A DNA stretch of 64,000 nucleotides from the NCBI GenBank assembly GCA_037444845.1, contig JBBILQ010000008.1:385-64384 (forward strand), read 5' to 3'. Under the pieces are notes generated by a model, which was not told where the DNA came from, searched no databases, and saw only the letters and a list, made by a program, of their open reading frames with translations. The DNA is from Candidatus Aminicenantes bacterium (GTDB lineage Bacteria; Acidobacteriota; Aminicenantia; Aminicenantales; UBA8522). The translations under genes and the position numbers were made by a program. Positions 554 through 12,657 of this stretch are shown in pieces; position 1 is the first letter of the stretch, and each line of letters opens with the position of its first letter.

Positions 554-1378
554 ATGAGATTTTCATTCATTCTTGCTCTGAGCCTGGCCTTCATCAACTG
601 CGCGTCGGCTCCCCGGGAGAAGCCAACCCTTCCCAAAGAAAAAGATCCTCAATATCAATACGAATTGGCTCAGACAGCCCTGCGCTACGGCCTGGAGGAT
701 GAAGCGATTAAATATCTGAATCAGGCGACAACCCTGGACCCTAACCATTATCCTTCTTTTTATCTGCTTGGGGTCATCCAGTCGCAAAAACGCAATTTCT
801 TGGAAGCAGAAAAAGCCTTCCTCAAGTGCCTGGAGTTGAAGCCCGACCAGGCCGACGCTCACCTGAGGCTTGGCGTCGTCTTCGAGGAAATGCTGGAACC
901 TGCCAAGGCGGAAGAGGAGTATAAGAAGGCTTACGCCATTAACGGGAATGTTGAATCCCTTATTAACCTGGCCAAGCTTTATTATGACCAGAAGAAGCTT
1001 GATCTGGCCCTGGAGACGGTTCAAAAAGCCACCGAGAAGGAAAATCCTCCCTTTCCAGCTTTTAACTTGCAGGGCGTCATTTTGAATGAACTCGGCCGGT
1101 ATCCGGAGGCCATCTCCAGGTTTCAGAATGCCCTGAGAATTGACCCGCAGAGCGATGTCGCCAGGATCAACCTGGCCGTTGCCCTCGTCAATAACGGGAA
1201 TTTGAACGAAGCCCGTGAGCTTTTGGAGAAAACACTCGAACGGATGAAAGATCAGAACCTTAAGAAGCGGATCCTTGAATACCTGGAGAAAATCAAGAAG
1301 CTAAATTCAGGGGACACGATCCCAATTCCAGAGAATTTGGTCATGTCCCCTGAGTTACTCTCGATTCTTACGCGCTGA
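554..1378 (+). CDS. TPR-repeat lipoprotein
   Basis: Signal peptide with lipobox-like AFINC followed by about 6 TPR repeats. The last ~25 codons run through a palindromic element. Confidence 0.85.
   Translation: MRFSFILALSLAFINCASAPREKPTLPKEKDPQYQYELAQTALRYGLEDEAIKYLNQATTLDPNHYPSFYLLGVIQSQKRNFLEAEKAFLKCLELKPDQADAHLRLGVVFEEMLEPAKAEEEYKKAYAINGNVESLINLAKLYYDQKKLDLALETVQKATEKENPPFPAFNLQGVILNELGRYPEAISRFQNALRIDPQSDVARINLAVALVNNGNLNEARELLEKTLERMKDQNLKKRILEYLEKIKKLNSGDTIPIPENLVMSPELLSILTR
1304..1356. repeat. REP-like palindromic element (GGGGACA...TGTCCCC type)
   Basis: AATTCAGGGGACA (1304-1316) pairs with TGTCCCCTGAGTT (1344-1356) with one G-T; inner AATTC/GAATT stem. Confidence 0.7.
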
Positions 1379-6805: not shown

Positions 6806-8098
6806 TCAGAGCAGCAGCTTCTTTCGCCGGAACTTGAGCTTCATGGTCAGAACTCTGTCGGTGGAAAAGATGCGGGCAGCGATAAGGATCAGGGCGATAA
6901 AAAAGACTAACATATAAAGAAGGCCGCCAAAGACGGCGGTATAATTTTCCAGGAGCAGGTTCTGCGTCGTCAGGAAGGGATGAGAAAAGGGGATGGCATA
7001 AACGAAGAGTTTAACTGGAAGGGAAAGGTTTTTGATATCGGAGAAGAAGGAGAGGAAGTAGGGGATCATGACGAGAAAAATCAGCGGCATGATCAGGCTT
7101 TGGGCGCTCCGGTAATCTTCGGCCAGAACGCCGAGAATTGTGGCCATGGCCAGGGCGCAGAGGATGGCCAGGAAGAGAGAAATTCCGAGGATGAGGTAGC
7201 TGTTGGCGGTCGGGGCAAGGCCAAGCTCCTGGATGACCCTGCCCAAGCCCGCTGAGTCTACTGCCTGTCGCACATCGCCCATAAAACCTCCCATGTAATA
7301 CCTGAACCCGAACATATAGATGACGGCGGAAACCAGCCCGACGACAGCCGAGGCTAACATCTTGGTCGTGACGATGGACGTTCGGCTGATCGGGACGGTG
7401 AGCAACGTCTCTAAGGTTTTATTCTGCTTCTCCATGGCGATGGCCGAGATGACCATCTGCGAAGAATAGATAATGATCATCATCAGGATGATGGGGAGAA
7501 AAACGGATTGGGCGGAGACGAACCCTGCGATCGACGAGGCCGACCCTTCGGCCATCCTGGCTTTGACGATGACGAAATCCTTGCTCCGGACCGGTTTCTT
7601 GAGTTTTTCCGGGCTGAAGTCAGGAATTTTCTTTTTTAAGAAGTCATCGGAGATGTAGTTGTTGAGCGCGGATATGACGCTCCCCAAGATGACCGAACTC
7701 CTGCTTCCTACGAGGGAAAAGCTCCTCAAGAAAGAGTAGGTTTCCATCTCCTTCAACTCTAAGGCCGACAGGGATTCGCCGAAACCGGGGGGAATGACCA
7801 AAAGGAGGTTGATATCGCTTGCTTTTGTCCATTCCACGGCTTCCTCTTTGGATTTGCCCTGGAGCTTTTCTACGTGGAAACGGGCCATGTTGAGGCTATC
7901 GGTTAGCTGTTGGGAAAGTGTTGACGCGTCCAGGTCGAGGACCGCAATTTTCTGGGTCCGCATGGCCCTCTTCATCTCGCTTTTGGCCATCTGGCCGATG
8001 AAATAGAAAAGGAAAACCGTAAAAAGCAGAGAGATGAAGAGTTGCAGGGTGATAAGCTCTCTGATTTCCTTTGCCAGGAGGTTGAGGAATTTTTTCAT
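6806..8098 (-). CDS. ABC-2 type exporter permease (NatB-like)
   Basis: N-terminal TM, large loop, IAMEKQNKTLETLLTVPISR motif, several C-terminal TMs. Confidence 0.9.
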   Translation of the reverse strand: MKKFLNLLAKEIRELITLQLFISLLFTVFLFYFIGQMAKSEMKRAMRTQKIAVLDLDASTLSQQLTDSLNMARFHVEKLQGKSKEEAVEWTKASDINLLLVIPPGFGESLSALELKEMETYSFLRSFSLVGSRSSVILGSVISALNNYISDDFLKKKIPDFSPEKLKKPVRSKDFVIVKARMAEGSASSIAGFVSAQSVFLPIILMMIIIYSSQMVISAIAMEKQNKTLETLLTVPISRTSIVTTKMLASAVVGLVSAVIYMFGFRYYMGGFMGDVRQAVDSAGLGRVIQELGLAPTANSYLILGISLFLAILCALAMATILGVLAEDYRSAQSLIMPLIFLVMIPYFLSFFSDIKNLSLPVKLFVYAIPFSHPFLTTQNLLLENYTAVFGGLLYMLVFFIALILIAARIFSTDRVLTMKLKFRRKKLLL

Positions 8099-8817
8099 CT
8101 GAGGGCACTCCTGAAGACTTCTTCTAAGTTTCCGGCCTGGTATTTTTCTTTAAGCTCTTTCGAAGTGCCGGAATCCAGGATGACTCCCTTATCGATGAGA
8201 GCGACCCTGTCGGACAGGAACTCGATCTCGAGCATGTTGTGCGAGGACAGGAGCACGGAGATGCCTTCGGCGGCGAATTTCTTGATGATCTCTCTCACCT
8301 CCAGCGCGTTGATAACGTCGAGGCCTGAGGTGGGTTCGTCCAGGATGGCCAGGTCCGGCCTGGTCATGAGGGCCCGGCCGAGGAGGAGTTTCCTGACCAT
8401 CCCCTTTGAATACGTGCCGGCCTTCTCGTTGATCCGATTTCCCAGTCTGGCGATCGATTTGGCTCGATCCACAAACTCGCGGGTTTTCTCGTCGGAATCG
8501 GCGTAGAACCTGGCCATGAACTTCAAATAATCGATGCCCTTGAGGTTTCTGTACGCTCCGGCTTCTTCAGGAAGATAGCTGATTTTTTCACGGAATTTTT
8601 CCGGTTCCTTTTTCAGGTCGAAACCAAGAAACGTGACTTTGCCACCGGTGGCGGAGAGGAGAGTGGCCACGATGCGGAGAGCTGTCGTCTTTCCGGCCCC
8701 GTTCGGGCCGATGAGGGCGAAGATTTCTCCCGGTTTGACCTGGAAGTTGATGCCTTTGAGGGCTTCCAGGCTGCCGTAATTTTTTCTTAGGCCTTCGACT
8801 TCGAGGACTGAATCCAT
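8095..8817 (-). CDS. ABC exporter ATP-binding protein (NatA-like)
   Basis: GPNGAGKT Walker A, YSKGM signature, ILDEPTSGLD Walker B; 4-nt overlap with permease. Confidence 0.92.
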   Translation of the reverse strand: MDSVLEVEGLRKNYGSLEALKGINFQVKPGEIFALIGPNGAGKTTALRIVATLLSATGGKVTFLGFDLKKEPEKFREKISYLPEEAGAYRNLKGIDYLKFMARFYADSDEKTREFVDRAKSIARLGNRINEKAGTYSKGMVRKLLLGRALMTRPDLAILDEPTSGLDVINALEVREIIKKFAAEGISVLLSSHNMLEIEFLSDRVALIDKGVILDSGTSKELKEKYQAGNLEEVFRSALR

Positions 8818-8880
8818 ACAAACCTCCCGTTCTTCATACGCAGAGATTCTAATAAAGTTTGGGCCGATTTGCAAAACAGG

Positions 8881-10827
8881 TCAAGATTTGACGATGACAG
8901 CCAGCGATTCCATGTGCGGGGTGTGGGGGAAAAAGTCGAAGATGGAGAGCTTCTGGAGCTTGTAACCGTGCTGGGCAAAAAGGCTCAGGTCGCGCGCCAG
9001 GGCAGCCGGGTTGCAGGAGACATAAATGATGGCCGGAATGTTCAAGGCTGTGATGTGTTTAAGTCCTTTGTTGCTGATCCCAGCCCGGGGAGGGTCGAGC
9101 ACAACGAGGTCAAAGCCGCGGAAGTCGCTCTTCTTGAGAACCCGCTCGACGCGGCCTTCGATAAAGCGACAGTTAGAGATGCCGTTCGTCCGGCAGTTTT
9201 CCCTGGCCGTCGCGATGTTCATCGGTTCAGAATCGACGCCGACGACTTCGTCTGCGGTCCGGGATAGGAAGATCTCGATCGACCCCGGCCCGCAGTAAAG
9301 GCCCAGGACTCTCCGGCTTGCTCTGGCGTTTGCTTCGGCCGCAATTTTGCTGTAAAGAATCTCCGCCGCCTTCGGGTTAGGCTGGAAGAAGGATTCAGGA
9401 GAGATTCGAAACCGAAACCTTCCCATCGTATCCTCGATGAATTTCTGGCCGGAGATGTGTTTTTTCGCGGTGTAGTCGACGACATCGGAAACCCGGTCGG
9501 TTTCCACCCACCAGAAGCTCTTCATCCGGGACATCTCAAGCTCCAGCCTTTCGGCGAGCCGCCAGACTTCTGGCTGCCGGCCGCTCTTCGTTCCCAGGAT
9601 AGCCAGGATATCGCCGCTTGCTTTTCCTTCTCTCAAGACGAGATTCCGGAAATAGCCTTCCCGCCGGGTCGGGTCGTAGGCGGGGAGTCCCGTCTCTTTG
9701 GCAAAGCCGGCAACAAGGGGAAAAATCTCTTCGGCAGCGGGGCTGAAGATCGGGCATTTTTTGAGCTCAACAGTGCTTCTTTCGCCTTTTGCCAGAGGAG
9801 AAGCGCGGCGGCGAAGGCCAAGAAAGACGCGGCGGCCTTCTCCTCCGAAGGCAAACTCCATCTTGTTCCTGTAGAAATAAATATCCGGCGAAGGGATGAT
9901 GGGCTCTTTTTCCAGCCCGGTTGCTTCGATTTTCCCGATTGTCCTCAGGGTTCGAAGGAAATAATTCTCTTTGAGCTCGAGCTGCTTGGAATAAGCGAGG
10001 TTCTGGAAGGCGCAGCCGCCGCACTCGCCGAAATGGGGACATTCCGGCTTGACCCGAAAAGGTGAACGAGAGTTGAAGTTGATCATCCGGCCGAAAAAAT
10101 GTTTTTTCCTTTTCCGCGCCACCCTGATTGTGACCTGATCGCCGACGATGGTCCCGGGGACAAAAGTGACTGCCTTGTCGATCATCGCCACACCCCAGTC
10201 GTTCGGGAAAGCGATATCGGTGATAGTGACGGAATGCTCCGCGCTCAAGAACTCGGCCAGCAGCCTCTTGACTCTCTTAACGGGAAGGCCGACGACATTG
10301 TCGTAGTCGCCTTCGAGTTTTTCGACAAAGGCATCCCCGACCTTTTGAATGGCGTAACCTCCGGCTTTGTCAGCGAACTCGCCGGTCGCGAGATAGCCTT
10401 CGATCTCTTCGTCGCTTAACGGCTTGAAGCGGACGTGGCTGATCTCGCAATCGGCGAGGAGCCTGTCCTCGTCTTTCTTGTAAAAGGCGACGGCGGTGAT
10501 AACGCGATGCCTTTGGCCGGAGAGTTTCTTGAGCATCTGCCTGGCGTCAAGCCTGTCTTTGGGCTTTCCGAGGATTTCCTTTCCCAGACAGACGAGAGTA
10601 TCAGCCCCTAAGACCAGCGCAGACGGAAATTTCTCGGCCACATCCCGCGCTTTGGCTTCGGCAGCATGGAGGGCAAAACGCACTGGGTCTTGTTCTCGGA
10701 AGGTCTCTTCGTCCACTTCGCTCGGGACAACCTGGAAGCGGCTGACGATTCTCTTGAGGAGCTCTTGTCGTCGCGGCGACCGAGAGGCAAGGATGATCTC
10801 TAGACCGGTCTCAGGATTTGTCCGCAT
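8881..10827 (-). CDS. rlmD: Maf nucleotide pyrophosphatase fused to 23S rRNA m5U methyltransferase RlmD
   Basis: N-terminal ~195 aa: ILASRSPRR, GADTLV, GKP, DKAGGYAIQ, NVVGLP. Then TRAM domain, CPHFGECGGC Fe-S motif, YRNKMEF, SFFQPN, DPPRAG, YVSCNP, FFPHTPHME. One continuous frame. Confidence 0.9.
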   Translation of the reverse strand: MRTNPETGLEIILASRSPRRQELLKRIVSRFQVVPSEVDEETFREQDPVRFALHAAEAKARDVAEKFPSALVLGADTLVCLGKEILGKPKDRLDARQMLKKLSGQRHRVITAVAFYKKDEDRLLADCEISHVRFKPLSDEEIEGYLATGEFADKAGGYAIQKVGDAFVEKLEGDYDNVVGLPVKRVKRLLAEFLSAEHSVTITDIAFPNDWGVAMIDKAVTFVPGTIVGDQVTIRVARKRKKHFFGRMINFNSRSPFRVKPECPHFGECGGCAFQNLAYSKQLELKENYFLRTLRTIGKIEATGLEKEPIIPSPDIYFYRNKMEFAFGGEGRRVFLGLRRRASPLAKGERSTVELKKCPIFSPAAEEIFPLVAGFAKETGLPAYDPTRREGYFRNLVLREGKASGDILAILGTKSGRQPEVWRLAERLELEMSRMKSFWWVETDRVSDVVDYTAKKHISGQKFIEDTMGRFRFRISPESFFQPNPKAAEILYSKIAAEANARASRRVLGLYCGPGSIEIFLSRTADEVVGVDSEPMNIATARENCRTNGISNCRFIEGRVERVLKKSDFRGFDLVVLDPPRAGISNKGLKHITALNIPAIIYVSCNPAALARDLSLFAQHGYKLQKLSIFDFFPHTPHMESLAVIVKS

Positions 10828-10908
10828 CGGTCCACACTATATGACCGGAGAAGTGCCGATGTCAACGCCGGACATTCGAACGTTCGATGAGAAGGGCAAC
10901 ATTCTTGG

Positions 10909-10937
10909 TTGACAAGAGGGGAGAGAATTTCTATAGT
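10909..10937 (+). promoter_or_regulatory. sigma70-type promoter for POT transporter
   Basis: TTGACA, 17 nt, TATAGT. Confidence 0.6.
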
Positions 10938-10974
10938 AGTCCGAGCCAGCTCGAACCAACAAGGACGGTGAGCC

Positions 10975-12657
10975 ATGTTCAAAGGGCATCCGAAGGGTCT
11001 CTTTGTCGCCTTTTTTTCCAACATGGGCGAGCGGTTCGGGTTTTACACGATGATCAGCATCTTTGTCCTCTTCCTTCAAGCCAAGTACGGCTTTAACGCC
11101 GCCCAATCGAGCTTAGTTTATGGAGTTTTTCTTTTCTGTGTTTATTTTTTCCCGCTGCTCGGGGGAGTGGTGGCTGACAGGCTGTTAGGCTACGGGAGGA
11201 CGATCAGCCTTGGTCTTGTCGTCATGTTCTTAGGCTACATGATGCTCGCGATCCCGAGCGTTAGGGAGACGAATTTCGCTCTCGTTATCGCCGCCCTGGC
11301 CACGATAGCCCTGGGCACAGGGTTTTTCAAGGGCAACCTCCAGGCACTCGTGGGGAACCTGTATGATGACCCCCATTACGGCGCCTTGCGCGACAGGGCG
11401 TTCAATATTTTTTACATGGGGATCAACATCGGCGCGATGTTCGCGCCGACAGCCTCGGAAAAGGTCAGCAACTGGATTCTGGCCGCGTCGAACTATGTTT
11501 ACGACGCAAGGATTCCAGCGCTGGCCAACGATTTCCTGAAGGGAAAACTGGCCGAGGCGGGCGAGTATCTCTCCATCGCCCGGCTCCAGGACCCGAGCGT
11601 CACCCTGGAAACGCTCGCCGGGTTTTCGGAGAGATACATCAACGCCCTGAGCAAATCCTACCACTACGGCTTCGGAGTGGCCTGCGTCAGCCTGATCATC
11701 TCCATGCTCATCTTCTGGGGTTTCCGGAAGTTTTACCGGCAGGCCGATTTCACCGAAAAACAGAAAGCCAAGTCTGAAGCGCTCAAATCTCAAGTAGTCG
11801 AACTGACTCCCCAGCAAACAAGGGAACGCCTGGTCGCCCTTGTTCTCGTGTTTTTGGTCGTCATCTTCTTCTGGATGTCTTTCCACCAGAGCGCGGTCAC
11901 GATGACCTATTTTGCGAGGGATTACACTGTGCCGAGCGTGGGCAAGATCGCCAACTTGCTTTTTGACCTTTTCGGCCTTCTGGCCGTCTTCCTGGCCGTC
12001 GTGGGCCTTGTTTTCCTGCTCAGGAAAAGTTCTGGCACCGGAACGCGGTTGCTCGGAGGGCTGGCTCTTGTCGGGTTTGGACTCCTCGCCCTCCAGAGAT
12101 ACAAAAGCTACGGGGAGGTCAACCCGTTCACTCCGCAAAAATTCCAGCATTTCAACCCGTTTTTTATCGTCGCTTTAACCCCGCTCGTTGTCGGCCTGTT
12201 CGGCTATCTGAACAGGAAGGGGAAAGAGCCCTCGGCGCCGAGGAAAATCGGTGTCGGCATGCTCATCACCGCGGTCGGCTTCCTCCTGCTCGTTTTTGGG
12301 TCGTTCGGGTTGCCCAGCCCGAAAGAACTTGGCGGACAGGTGGCGCCGGCCGGAGACCTTGTTTCCGTCTACTGGCTGATCGCGACGTATTTTTTGCTGA
12401 CGATTGCTGAGCTCTTCCTCAGCCCGATGGGGATTTCTTTCGTTTCGCGAGTGGCGCCTCCAAAGTACAAAGGAATGATGCAGGGCGGATGGTTTGCCGC
12501 GACAGCCATCGGGAACTATCTTGTCGCCGTCATCGGCTATTTCTGGTTGAGGGTGCCCTTATGGTCGTTGTGGTTGATCCTGGTTGTTTGCTGTCTTCTT
12601 TCTGCCGGGTTCATCTTTGCGGTGATGAAAAGGCTTGAGCGGGTGGCTCGAGCTTAG
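10975..12657 (+). CDS. Proton-dependent oligopeptide transporter (POT/PTR, MFS)
   Basis: ERFGFY, GGVVADRLLG, FYMGINIG and TIAELFLSPMG motifs. Confidence 0.92.
   Translation: MFKGHPKGLFVAFFSNMGERFGFYTMISIFVLFLQAKYGFNAAQSSLVYGVFLFCVYFFPLLGGVVADRLLGYGRTISLGLVVMFLGYMMLAIPSVRETNFALVIAALATIALGTGFFKGNLQALVGNLYDDPHYGALRDRAFNIFYMGINIGAMFAPTASEKVSNWILAASNYVYDARIPALANDFLKGKLAEAGEYLSIARLQDPSVTLETLAGFSERYINALSKSYHYGFGVACVSLIISMLIFWGFRKFYRQADFTEKQKAKSEALKSQVVELTPQQTRERLVALVLVFLVVIFFWMSFHQSAVTMTYFARDYTVPSVGKIANLLFDLFGLLAVFLAVVGLVFLLRKSSGTGTRLLGGLALVGFGLLALQRYKSYGEVNPFTPQKFQHFNPFFIVALTPLVVGLFGYLNRKGKEPSAPRKIGVGMLITAVGFLLLVFGSFGLPSPKELGGQVAPAGDLVSVYWLIATYFLLTIAELFLSPMGISFVSRVAPPKYKGMMQGGWFAATAIGNYLVAVIGYFWLRVPLWSLWLILVVCCLLSAGFIFAVMKRLERVARA

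Follow-up and report, generated by a model that had tools for sequence, protein, structure and literature searches.

One gene in the 64-kb window, the whole stretch of DNA that was analysed, encodes a Maf domain followed in the same frame by a TRAM/[4Fe-4S]/RumA-family m5U RNA methyltransferase portion (Table 1). The preliminary description had reported a 648-residue frame that joins a complete Maf domain to a complete TRAM/[4Fe-4S]/methyltransferase near nt 10240 and carries the motifs SCNP and PHTPHME. All of this was recovered: both halves are full-length by profile, the junction falls at about nt 10242, and the motifs occupy residues 604-607 and 634-640. The only start codon upstream of the conserved Maf N-terminus is the ATG at 10827. 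The putative promoter in front of it matches the consensus at 11 of 12 positions and ends 8 nt ahead of the ATG. We infer promoter function from this pattern match, and its position implies that the fusion mRNA would be leaderless or nearly so. No second Maf or RumA gene was found inside the window, and a search for conserved operon partners around the fusion gene found that neighbours are kept in the closest relative only.

Table 1. Features of the fusion gene and contigs that cross its junction (positions in the window).
Feature	Position	Strand	Details	Basis
Whole fusion gene	8881..10827	minus	648 codons + stop (8881-8883)	ORF list and translation
Putative sigma-70-type promoter	10836..10865	minus	TTGACA, 18 nt, TATAGT	consensus scan
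Maf domain, YhdE subtype	10249..10800	minus	residues 10-193	Pfam PF02545
Junction	10219..10248	minus	residues 194-203	AF2 secondary structure
Predicted TRAM-like beta-barrel RNA-binding domain	10069..10242	minus	residues about 196-253	NCBIfam PyTRAM
Cys-x5-Cys-x2-Cys	10012..10041	minus	C263/C269/C272, three of four predicted [4Fe-4S] ligands	
C358	9754..9756	minus	predicted fourth [4Fe-4S] ligand	aligns to RumA C162
SAM-dependent catalytic domain	8902..9420	minus	residues 470-642	Pfam PF05958
F480/Q482 in FFQPN; GxGxG-type motif GLYCGPG 509-515; DPPRAG 578-583			within catalytic domain	
Nucleophile C605	9013-9015	minus	RumA C389 equivalent	
General base E640	8908-8910	minus	RumA E424 equivalent	
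Logan contig X1	9908-11000		0 differences	
Logan contig X4	10127-10277		1 difference	
Logan contig X2	10181-10519		0 gaps at junction	
Logan contig X7	10110-10664		0 gaps at junction	

The Maf half covers the whole PF02545 model (positions 1-187 of 187; E 6.6e-62, 209 bits against a cut-off of 27) and scores 187.8 bits against TIGR00172 (cut-off 117.15). Its PDB matches include B. subtilis Maf (2.2e-41) and E. coli YhdE (4.9e-38), and its fold in the AlphaFold2 model agrees with 4heb at a TM score of 0.92. Alignment to these two proteins places the catalytic signature at S17, R20, E40, K59, D76 and K88, which in YhdE is formed by Ser10, Arg13, Glu33, Lys52, Asp70 and Lys82 (PMC3899018). Among 119 fusion homologues, with identities as low as 51%, the six residues are fully or almost fully invariant. 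Two subfamilies are told apart by the motifs R-T-Q (YhdE) and W-Q-E (YceF) (PMC3899018); the fusion has R19, T77 and Q161, conserved in 115, 119 and 119 of the 119 homologues, so that the YhdE subtype proposed from the initial reading holds. E. coli YhdE and B. subtilis Maf (BSU28050; 4P0E, 1EX2, 4HEB) have the same fold as the Maf half (target TM 0.89-0.92, 41-44% identity), an identical S-R-E-K-D-K signature and an identical R-T-Q motif, but they are stand-alone proteins of about 190 residues, whereas the C-terminal Maf helix of the fusion continues into the TRAM domain. From what we take to be the chemistry of the family, the Maf half would convert dTTP/UTP, m5UTP, pseudo-UTP and m5CTP to the NMP and PPi, and by this analogy it is probably active on pyrimidine or modified NTPs. 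In vitro, m5UTP, pseudo-UTP and m5CTP are all substrates of YhdE-type Mafs (PMC3899018).

The methyltransferase portion comprises residues 196-648 and matches TIGR00479 (rumA) over residues 212-640 (model 7-432 of 432; 298.5 bits, cut-off 183.55). NCBIfam PyTRAM is found on residues 196-246 (E 3e-08), and beta strands span residues 197-253 in the AF2 model. The Pfam TRAM model stays below the reporting level in this protein (E <= 0.01), and PF01938 is precomputed on many of the fusion homologues. C263, C269 and C272 align to C81, C87 and C90 of RumA, and together with C358 they are invariant in the 119 homologues. The catalytic domain matches PF05958 with an E value of 5.6e-24 (85.3 bits, cut-off 23). 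RumA residues F263, Q265, D363, C389 and E424 correspond in the alignment to F480, Q482, D578, C605 and E640, all of them invariant among the homologues, so that the four Fe-S cysteines, the nucleophilic cysteine and the general-base glutamate of RumA all have counterparts in the fusion. A Foldseek comparison with RlmCD extends over about 460 alignment columns at a target TM of 0.92 and takes in the three-domain fold. The same TRAM/central/catalytic fold is found, at target TM values of 0.87-0.92, across the RumA family: E. coli RlmD/RumA (1UWV, 2BH2), S. pneumoniae RlmCD (5XJ1, 5ZQ0), the P. abyssi tRNA-U54 enzyme PAB0719 (2JJQ) and the P. horikoshii U747 enzyme (8Z62). These characterised enzymes are only 25-29% identical to the fusion, and none has an N-terminal Maf domain. 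We consider it very probable that the C-terminal half makes m5U in RNA.

The preliminary description had called this enzyme RlmD, an identity that turns out to be annotation only. The RlmD equivalog model NF009639 matches in two pieces with 224.7 bits, where the cut-off is 458, and by sequence the best relatives of solved structure are archaeal, the tRNA-U54 and 23S-U747 enzymes rather than E. coli RumA. In a quick tree, with many deep forks unresolved and B. subtilis YfjO absent, the 26-row clade of the query (SH-aLRT 99) contains none of the six characterised references (E. coli RlmD, RlmC and TrmA, S. pneumoniae RlmCD and both archaeal enzymes), and RlmD and RlmCD are placed in another clade (SH-aLRT 99). 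Stand-alone methyltransferases and fusions are interleaved in this tree. With none of the references tested falling in its subfamily, the sequence does not disclose which RNA site is the target, be it 23S U1939, U747, tRNA U54 or some other; target prediction within COG2265 is known to be unreliable (PMC7226160). We consider 23S U1939 a candidate, at less than even odds.

The two halves adjoin directly in the model: the last Maf helix (residues 183-194) continues directly into the first TRAM strand (residues 197-201), and pLDDT is 89-93 across residues 181-210. The segment from P182 to D204 keeps a length of exactly 23 residues, with one exception among the 119 homologues (118 of 119). The AlphaFold2 model of the entire fusion has a pLDDT of 90.1 and a pTM of 0.80, which together with the ordered junction suggests that the predicted halves adopt a defined arrangement. 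Conservation per 20-residue block is alike in both halves, about 0.5-0.9, and this similarity, with catalytic residues that are invariant or nearly so, indicates that both halves are equally constrained.

Could the frame be an artefact, that is, two genes joined by an assembly or sequencing error, or a pseudogene? The one observation in favour is the automatic gene call P0002, a truncated database version of 600 residues that begins at an internal GTG at residue 49. We rejected this call because conserved catalytic residues precede its GTG start, and a near-consensus promoter stands immediately before the ATG at 10827. The Maf-methyltransferase architecture recurs in more than 120 protein clusters at 90% identity, each of about 640 residues, mostly labelled Aminicenantes and 51-87% identical to the query. 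At 50% identity there are at least nine full-length representative clusters, the lowest of them 36% identical to the query. The taxonomic spread is known from a few source labels only. The labels 'Eubacteriales bacterium' and 'Clostridiales bacterium' look unreliable, as the proteins that bear them are 62-87% identical to Aminicenantes-labelled ones. Reads across the junction had been proposed as a check on the fusion, and Logan contigs of four independent runs, each belonging to a different metagenome study, cross it without gaps; the only contig indels listed, at 8868 and 10875, lie outside the ORF. With independent clusters, conserved residues and junction-spanning contigs all against it, an artefact or pseudogene is refuted to within a negligible chance, and the claim of a true fusion stands. 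The possibility raised earlier that relatives carry two separate genes applies only to distant relatives and to the nearest stand-alone methyltransferases. The fusion is therefore lineage-specific rather than false. It is almost certainly a real, conserved bifunctional protein, and we infer that both enzymes of this single polypeptide are catalytically competent.

The fusion is not an isolated case among bacteria. Dehalococcoidia have fusions in the reverse order, methyltransferase before Maf (P0173, P0200, P0221, P0245, P0153; locus L033), which form a separate clade (SH-aLRT 99) within the RlmD/RlmCD group. They combine the same two families, with a YhdE-type Maf and intact catalytic residues, but differ in domain order, in a methyltransferase drawn from an RlmD/RlmCD-related clade and, in most cases, in having no recognisable Pfam TRAM domain. 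Elsewhere, separate maf and RumA-type genes lie close together on the same strand, in either order: side by side in Clostridia (L005-L007), where the methyltransferases are RlmCD-type (2.6e-97 to S. pneumoniae RlmCD), and in Chloroflexota (L021, L047, L068), and one or two genes apart in Eggerthellaceae (L008, L009). At least two independent events have joined Maf to RumA, each in its own domain order and with a different RumA subfamily, and adjacency is seen in three or more additional lineages. The linked Maf domains are YhdE-type (R-T/S-Q) in 27 of the 27 that aligned; P0135, misaligned in the residue table probably because of the domain cut, has a full Maf domain by Pfam. YhdE is the usual Maf type in bacteria, which makes its occurrence in all the linked cases weak evidence. 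Among the 600 Maf-pattern loci listed, only 13 have a RumA-type gene within 6 kb, in a ranking biased by placing loci with a RumA-type neighbour on top. In this biased sample 11 loci are fused or directly adjacent, whereas a rough estimate for random neighbours, with 1-3 RumA genes taken for every 3000 or so genes, gives less than one locus in 600. P0127 and P0132, the closest stand-alone methyltransferases, both lack a Maf neighbour (0 of 2).

Our literature searches found no paper describing a bacterial Maf-m5U methyltransferase fusion, in agreement with the earlier statement that no characterised one is known. The analogy drawn there with ASMTL holds for domain order: human ASMTL, like other eukaryotic Maf-methyltransferase fusions, has an N-terminal YhdE-type Maf and a C-terminal methyltransferase (PMC3899018), and its Maf domain (2P5X) is a clear structural match (3.7e-33 in the PDB search; 38-39% identity by structure match). 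The C-terminal half of ASMTL is, by its name, presumably acetylserotonin-O-methyltransferase-like and not of the TRAM/Fe-S RNA uracil-C5 type. With that class taken from the name, ASMTL and the bacterial fusion look independent.

What might be gained by the fusion is suggested by the fate of m5U. The C-terminal enzyme, an RNA uracil-C5 methyltransferase of the RumA family (COG2265), would write m5U into structured RNA. RNA turnover would set m5UMP free, kinases could convert it to m5UTP, and m5UTP would then be open to random insertion by RNA polymerase. The N-terminal YhdE-type Maf, as an NTP pyrophosphatase, would destroy that m5UTP, and fusing the writer to the destroyer would make them co-inherited and co-expressed at 1:1. 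Substrate channelling is unlikely, because the two reactions have no common metabolite. In Arabidopsis, 5-methyluridine from RNA turnover re-enters mRNA, and growth is reduced if it is not removed (PMC10415118). ASMTL, together with a gene pair in archaea, had already prompted the suggestion that Maf and methyltransferases are functionally related (PMC3899018). The coupling of m5U writing to m5UTP clearing gains comparative support from the independent fusions and from adjacency in other phyla; recurrent linkage speaks for a 'writer plus sanitiser' relationship that may run through m5UTP, but falls short of proof. We regard the m5U life cycle as the leading reason for the linkage, at somewhat under even odds. 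For the explanation as a whole, two active halves and a selective reason for joining them, we estimate a probability of about 0.5; what the data show directly is the architecture, the conserved residues and the recurrence, while every activity and the selective reason are predicted.

The main competitor is that neighbouring housekeeping genes lost an intervening stop, that the two halves work independently and that the fusion survives only by being harmless. Several observations speak for such a neutral fusion and also against the m5UTP reading: the reactions share no substrate or product, linkage is rare among the listed Maf loci, P0127 and P0132 lack a Maf neighbour, no conserved operon surrounds the gene, and the tree interleaves fusions with stand-alone enzymes, as if fusion and fission were cheap. 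Chance loss of a stop accounts poorly for at least two independent joinings in opposite orders with different RumA subfamilies, for adjacency in at least three more lineages, or for the excess over random neighbours, rough and drawn from a biased sample as it is. The constant junction length in 118 of 119 proteins and the confident placement of the domains (pTM 0.80) also argue against it, and we judge a neutral origin unlikely, if still worth serious consideration.

Two further readings keep a function for the linkage without m5UTP. A role in cell-division arrest has been proposed for YhdE, and the Maf half might trim the canonical dTTP and UTP pools and, through a link to ribosome or tRNA maturation, signal the growth rate. 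Both dTTP and UTP are hydrolysed by YhdE, and cells that overexpress it grow more slowly (PMC3899018; PMC4319933), and the R-T-Q pocket accepts thymine and uracil alike (PMC3899018). The linkage, however, is specifically with uracil-C5 methyltransferases, from three RumA subfamilies, which points to the methylated base and makes a canonical-pool function distinctly improbable. Features of the sequence itself are the same under the canonical-pool and m5UTP readings. Maf could instead be a module without catalysis, one for binding nucleotides or RNA or for dimerisation, recruited to aid the methyltransferase in binding its RNA. The short, rigid junction sets it beside the TRAM RNA-binding domain, and Maf proteins are reported to form dimers (PMC4529217). 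A pure scaffold would not be expected to keep every catalytic residue, whereas S17, R20, E40, K59, D76 and K88 are invariant or nearly so in the 119 homologues; a non-catalytic Maf is accordingly very improbable.

To our knowledge, no physiological role of Maf proteins has yet been firmly established. The case for house-cleaning of modified NTPs is based on in-vitro kinetics (PMC3899018). The fusion, with the independent fusions and gene pairs, offers comparative-genomic evidence pointing to m5UTP, and provides a single protein in which the Maf-m5UTP idea can be tested directly. The methyltransferase half, for its part, points to a sizeable subfamily of RumA enzymes that automatic annotation routinely names 'RlmD', a label that warrants caution. 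More speculatively, the repeated, independent joining of Maf and RumA, in two fusion orders, three RumA subfamilies and no fewer than four lineages at phylum level (going by MAG source labels), might be read as a 'Rosetta stone' in which m5UTP from RNA turnover is the physiological substrate of YhdE-type Mafs, the two enzymes form writer-sanitiser modules and Maf is brought to the site of maturation, a generalisation that we hold to be doubtful. If it is true, bacteria would keep stochastic m5U out of RNA through writer-sanitiser modules, and the rigidly attached Maf would also act where the methyltransferase docks, at rRNA/tRNA maturation.

The Maf-methyltransferase (MTase) fusion is real. 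A word-indexed search finds more than 120 clusters of ~640 aa, all with PF02545 and PF05958 and 51-87% identity, in NCBI, JGI, ENA and Logan assemblies (one on a 4.3-Mb contig); homologues are labelled Aminicenantes, Aminicenantales or Acidobacteriota. In Logan, contigs of four runs, each from a different study (subsurface, sediment, hot-spring and soil metagenomes), span the junction with 0 gaps, and the indels reported for them all lie outside the ORF. In 118 of 119 aligned homologues the segment running from Maf P182 through TRAM D204 has the identical length, 23 residues. GC content does not shift along the gene. The clusters, contigs and fixed junction bear out the single frame seen in the preliminary description, which had also put the junction at the domain boundary found here. 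The likelihood of an artefact is negligible.

Features of the fusion gene and its surroundings (nt, window positions; residues, fusion protein)
Feature	Position	Strand	Details
Fusion ORF	8881-10827	-	648 codons, single frame
Maf domain	residues 10-193		Pfam, model 1-187/187, E 6.6e-62, complete
Junction	residue ~195, nt ~10242
TRAM-like segment	residues 196-246		PyTRAM, E 3e-08; N-terminal of the RumA-type match
RumA-type methyltransferase	residues 212-640		NCBIfam TIGR00479, model 7-432/432, complete; 298.5 bits vs cut-off 183.55
Putative sigma-70-type promoter of fusion gene	TTGACA(10865)-18-TATAGT(10836)	-	11/12 consensus matches; ends 8 nt before ATG 10827
Putative second sigma-70-type promoter	TTGACA(10909)-17-TATAGT(10937)	+	near consensus; upstream of POT-family transporter gene at 10975
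Divergent intergenic region	10828-10974		147 nt
ABC transporter ATPase gene	8095-8874	-	follows fusion gene
ABC transporter permease gene	6806-8098	-	stop/start overlap

The sole usable start 5' of the conserved Maf N-terminus is ATG 10827. A public call for the same gene, P0002, is 600 aa long because it takes the GTG at residue 49 as its start, which removes the conserved Maf catalytic residues S17, R19, R20 and E40; we reject this version as an artefact. Since the promoter, a consensus pattern match, ends so close to the ATG, the mRNA is implied to be leaderless or nearly so, and the miscalled start is probably due to this and the missing Shine-Dalgarno sequence. The divergent intergenic region holds both near-consensus promoters back to back. 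Comparison of flanking genes across relatives reveals conservation only with the closest one, L001, which shares the ABC ATPase and permease arrangement (75-81% identity); three other fusion loci, L002-L004, do not.

The METHYLTRANSFERASE half, the C-terminal RumA-type part, was aligned to E. coli RlmD (RumA) from the K-12 record. The cluster ligands C81, C87, C90 and C162 of RumA map to C263, C269, C272 and C358 of the fusion, and F263, Q265 and D363 to F480, Q482 and D578; C605 corresponds to the nucleophile C389 and E640 to the base E424, and all are invariant across homologues. Judged by sequence, the name RlmD used in the preliminary description is not justified. With the equivalog model specific for RlmD the protein falls far short of the cut-off of 458 (224.7), and sequence comparison with solved enzymes ranks P. 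abyssi PAB0719 (tRNA U54) and a U747 enzyme from an archaeon first, ahead of RumA. In a tree of 156 MTase domains, the window protein belongs to a 26-row clade (SH-aLRT 99) of fusions and stand-alone proteins, with none of the six characterised references inside; RlmD and RlmCD form a separate clade (SH-aLRT 99), and RlmC lies elsewhere, with the archaeal enzymes. Target shifts are documented in COG2265, and target predictions have been contradicted by experiment (PMC7226160).

Maf proteins carry the signature S-R-E-K-D-K (Tchigvintsev et al., PMC3899018). An R-T-Q motif marks the YhdE subfamily, with the substrates dTTP, UTP, m5UTP, pseudo-UTP and m5CTP, and W-Q-E the YceF subfamily, with m7GTP (PMC3899018). 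When the domain is aligned with YhdE and B. subtilis Maf, the signature residues are S17, R20, E40, K59, D76 and K88 and the subtype residues R19, T77 and Q161, all invariant or nearly so across 119 fusion proteins. Among solved structures, B. subtilis Maf (2.2e-41) and YhdE (4.9e-38) match best, with YceF far behind (4.9e-24), and the YhdE subtype proposed earlier is upheld by both motif and match. The domain is constrained as expected for an active enzyme; a non-catalytic Maf domain is contradicted by the conservation of its catalytic residues and is very unlikely.

In a confident AlphaFold2 model from 94 homologues (pLDDT 90.1, pTM 0.80), the C-terminal 450 residues superpose on RlmCD with a target TM of 0.92 (rmsd 2.2 Å), on RumA with 0.87 and on the archaeal enzymes with 0.87-0.88, and the N-terminal part on B. 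subtilis Maf with 0.92. Comparison of the model against the PDB gave no entry spanning both halves. The fixed-length ordered junction and the pTM hint that the two domains may be held in a defined mutual orientation. A single stretch inside the model has low confidence, residues 151-170 (window 10318-10377; pLDDT 54-70). This is the Maf DKAGGYAIQ substrate-pocket loop carrying Q161, and its low confidence is consistent with a mobile lid (cf. the open and closed YhdE structures, PMC4319933).

An exhaustive search on 50%-identity cluster representatives reveals full-length proteins of Maf-MTase order in at least nine clusters (36-59% identity to the query) and the opposite order, confirmed by Pfam, in five. 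Species-representative genomes were also scanned for loci seeded by Maf motifs, and the best 80 of 600 were kept by total score, a ranking that favours loci carrying both genes and biases the sample. Maf is alone in 67 of these 80. Maf-MTase fusions occur in L001-L004 (L004 labelled Omnitrophota) and an MTase-Maf fusion in L033 (Dehalococcoidia). Separate adjacent or overlapping genes, MTase then Maf, are present in three loci labelled Chloroflexota (L021, L047, L068). In gut Clostridia the genes are adjacent, with Maf first in L005 and L007 and MTase first in L006, and in Eggerthellaceae (L008, L009) they lie one or two genes apart. About 13 of the 600 loci scanned (~2%) are thus linked, compared to a rough random-neighbour expectation of <1 in this biased sample. 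The reverse fusions and Chloroflexota neighbours form their own clade inside the RlmD/RlmCD group, and the partner in Clostridia is of RlmCD type (match to S. pneumoniae RlmCD at 2.6e-97; SH-aLRT 97). These separate tree positions imply Maf partners from at least three different RumA subfamilies, and the opposite domain orders imply at least two independent fusions, as one event cannot give both. For the Maf-first fusions the tree is compatible with repeated gains or with gains and later fissions. Of 28 linked Mafs, 27 were aligned, all YhdE-type with intact catalytic residues. Neither of the two closest stand-alone methyltransferases has a Maf neighbour.

Some homologues are unusual. In a MAG labelled 'uncultured bacterium' (L003:4726-8196) the fusion lies within a 1156-aa stop-to-stop frame, with ~425 stop-free residues before Maf and a partial match to the MTase catalytic domain (PF05958, residues 888-974); sequencing frameshifts or real decay could account for this. 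In an Eggerthellaceae MAG (L008:7451-9193), a 580-aa stop-to-stop frame has Maf at residues 376-571 and no Pfam match over its first ~370 residues; this may represent a further Maf fusion or an upstream gene that went unrecognised. Seven representative clusters of 340-560 aa (P0123, P0128, P0131, P0140, P0193, P0220, P0260) combine Maf with the TRAM/central domain but lack the catalytic domain. Most likely these are pieces of fusions cut off by contig ends; less probably, they are naturally truncated forms.

Maf converts NTP to NMP and PPi, and the MTase converts SAM and RNA-U to SAH and RNA-m5U. No small molecule is common to both reactions, so channelling is unlikely. The data fit a link through the life cycle of m5U as put forward for Maf in PMC3899018, where modified NMPs released by RNA turnover regain their phosphates and have to be cleared before polymerases can use them. 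On this reading, the MTase half would write m5U, RNA turnover would free the modified NMP for re-phosphorylation to the NTP, and the Maf half would clear this NTP ahead of polymerases; fusion would ensure that writer and sanitiser are inherited together and expressed 1:1. The hazard is real, since blocking 5-methyluridine removal in Arabidopsis leads to m5U in mRNA and slower growth (PMC10415118). Coupling through the dTTP/UTP pools is improbable, and a neutral fusion, in which the joining serves neither activity, is somewhat unlikely.

Both domains belong to well-known families. Eukaryotic ASMTL also fuses Maf with a methyltransferase, so such fusions were already known there, and a functional relationship was inferred from ASMTL-type fusions in 2013 (PMC3899018). 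Databases carry the bacterial Maf-RumA architecture under the automatic names 'RlmD' and 'RumA/MAF protein', and our literature search found no paper describing or testing it. The recurrent independent linkage provides comparative support for the view that YhdE-type Mafs have a house-cleaning role directed at m5UTP, and the fusion offers one protein in which this role may be tested.
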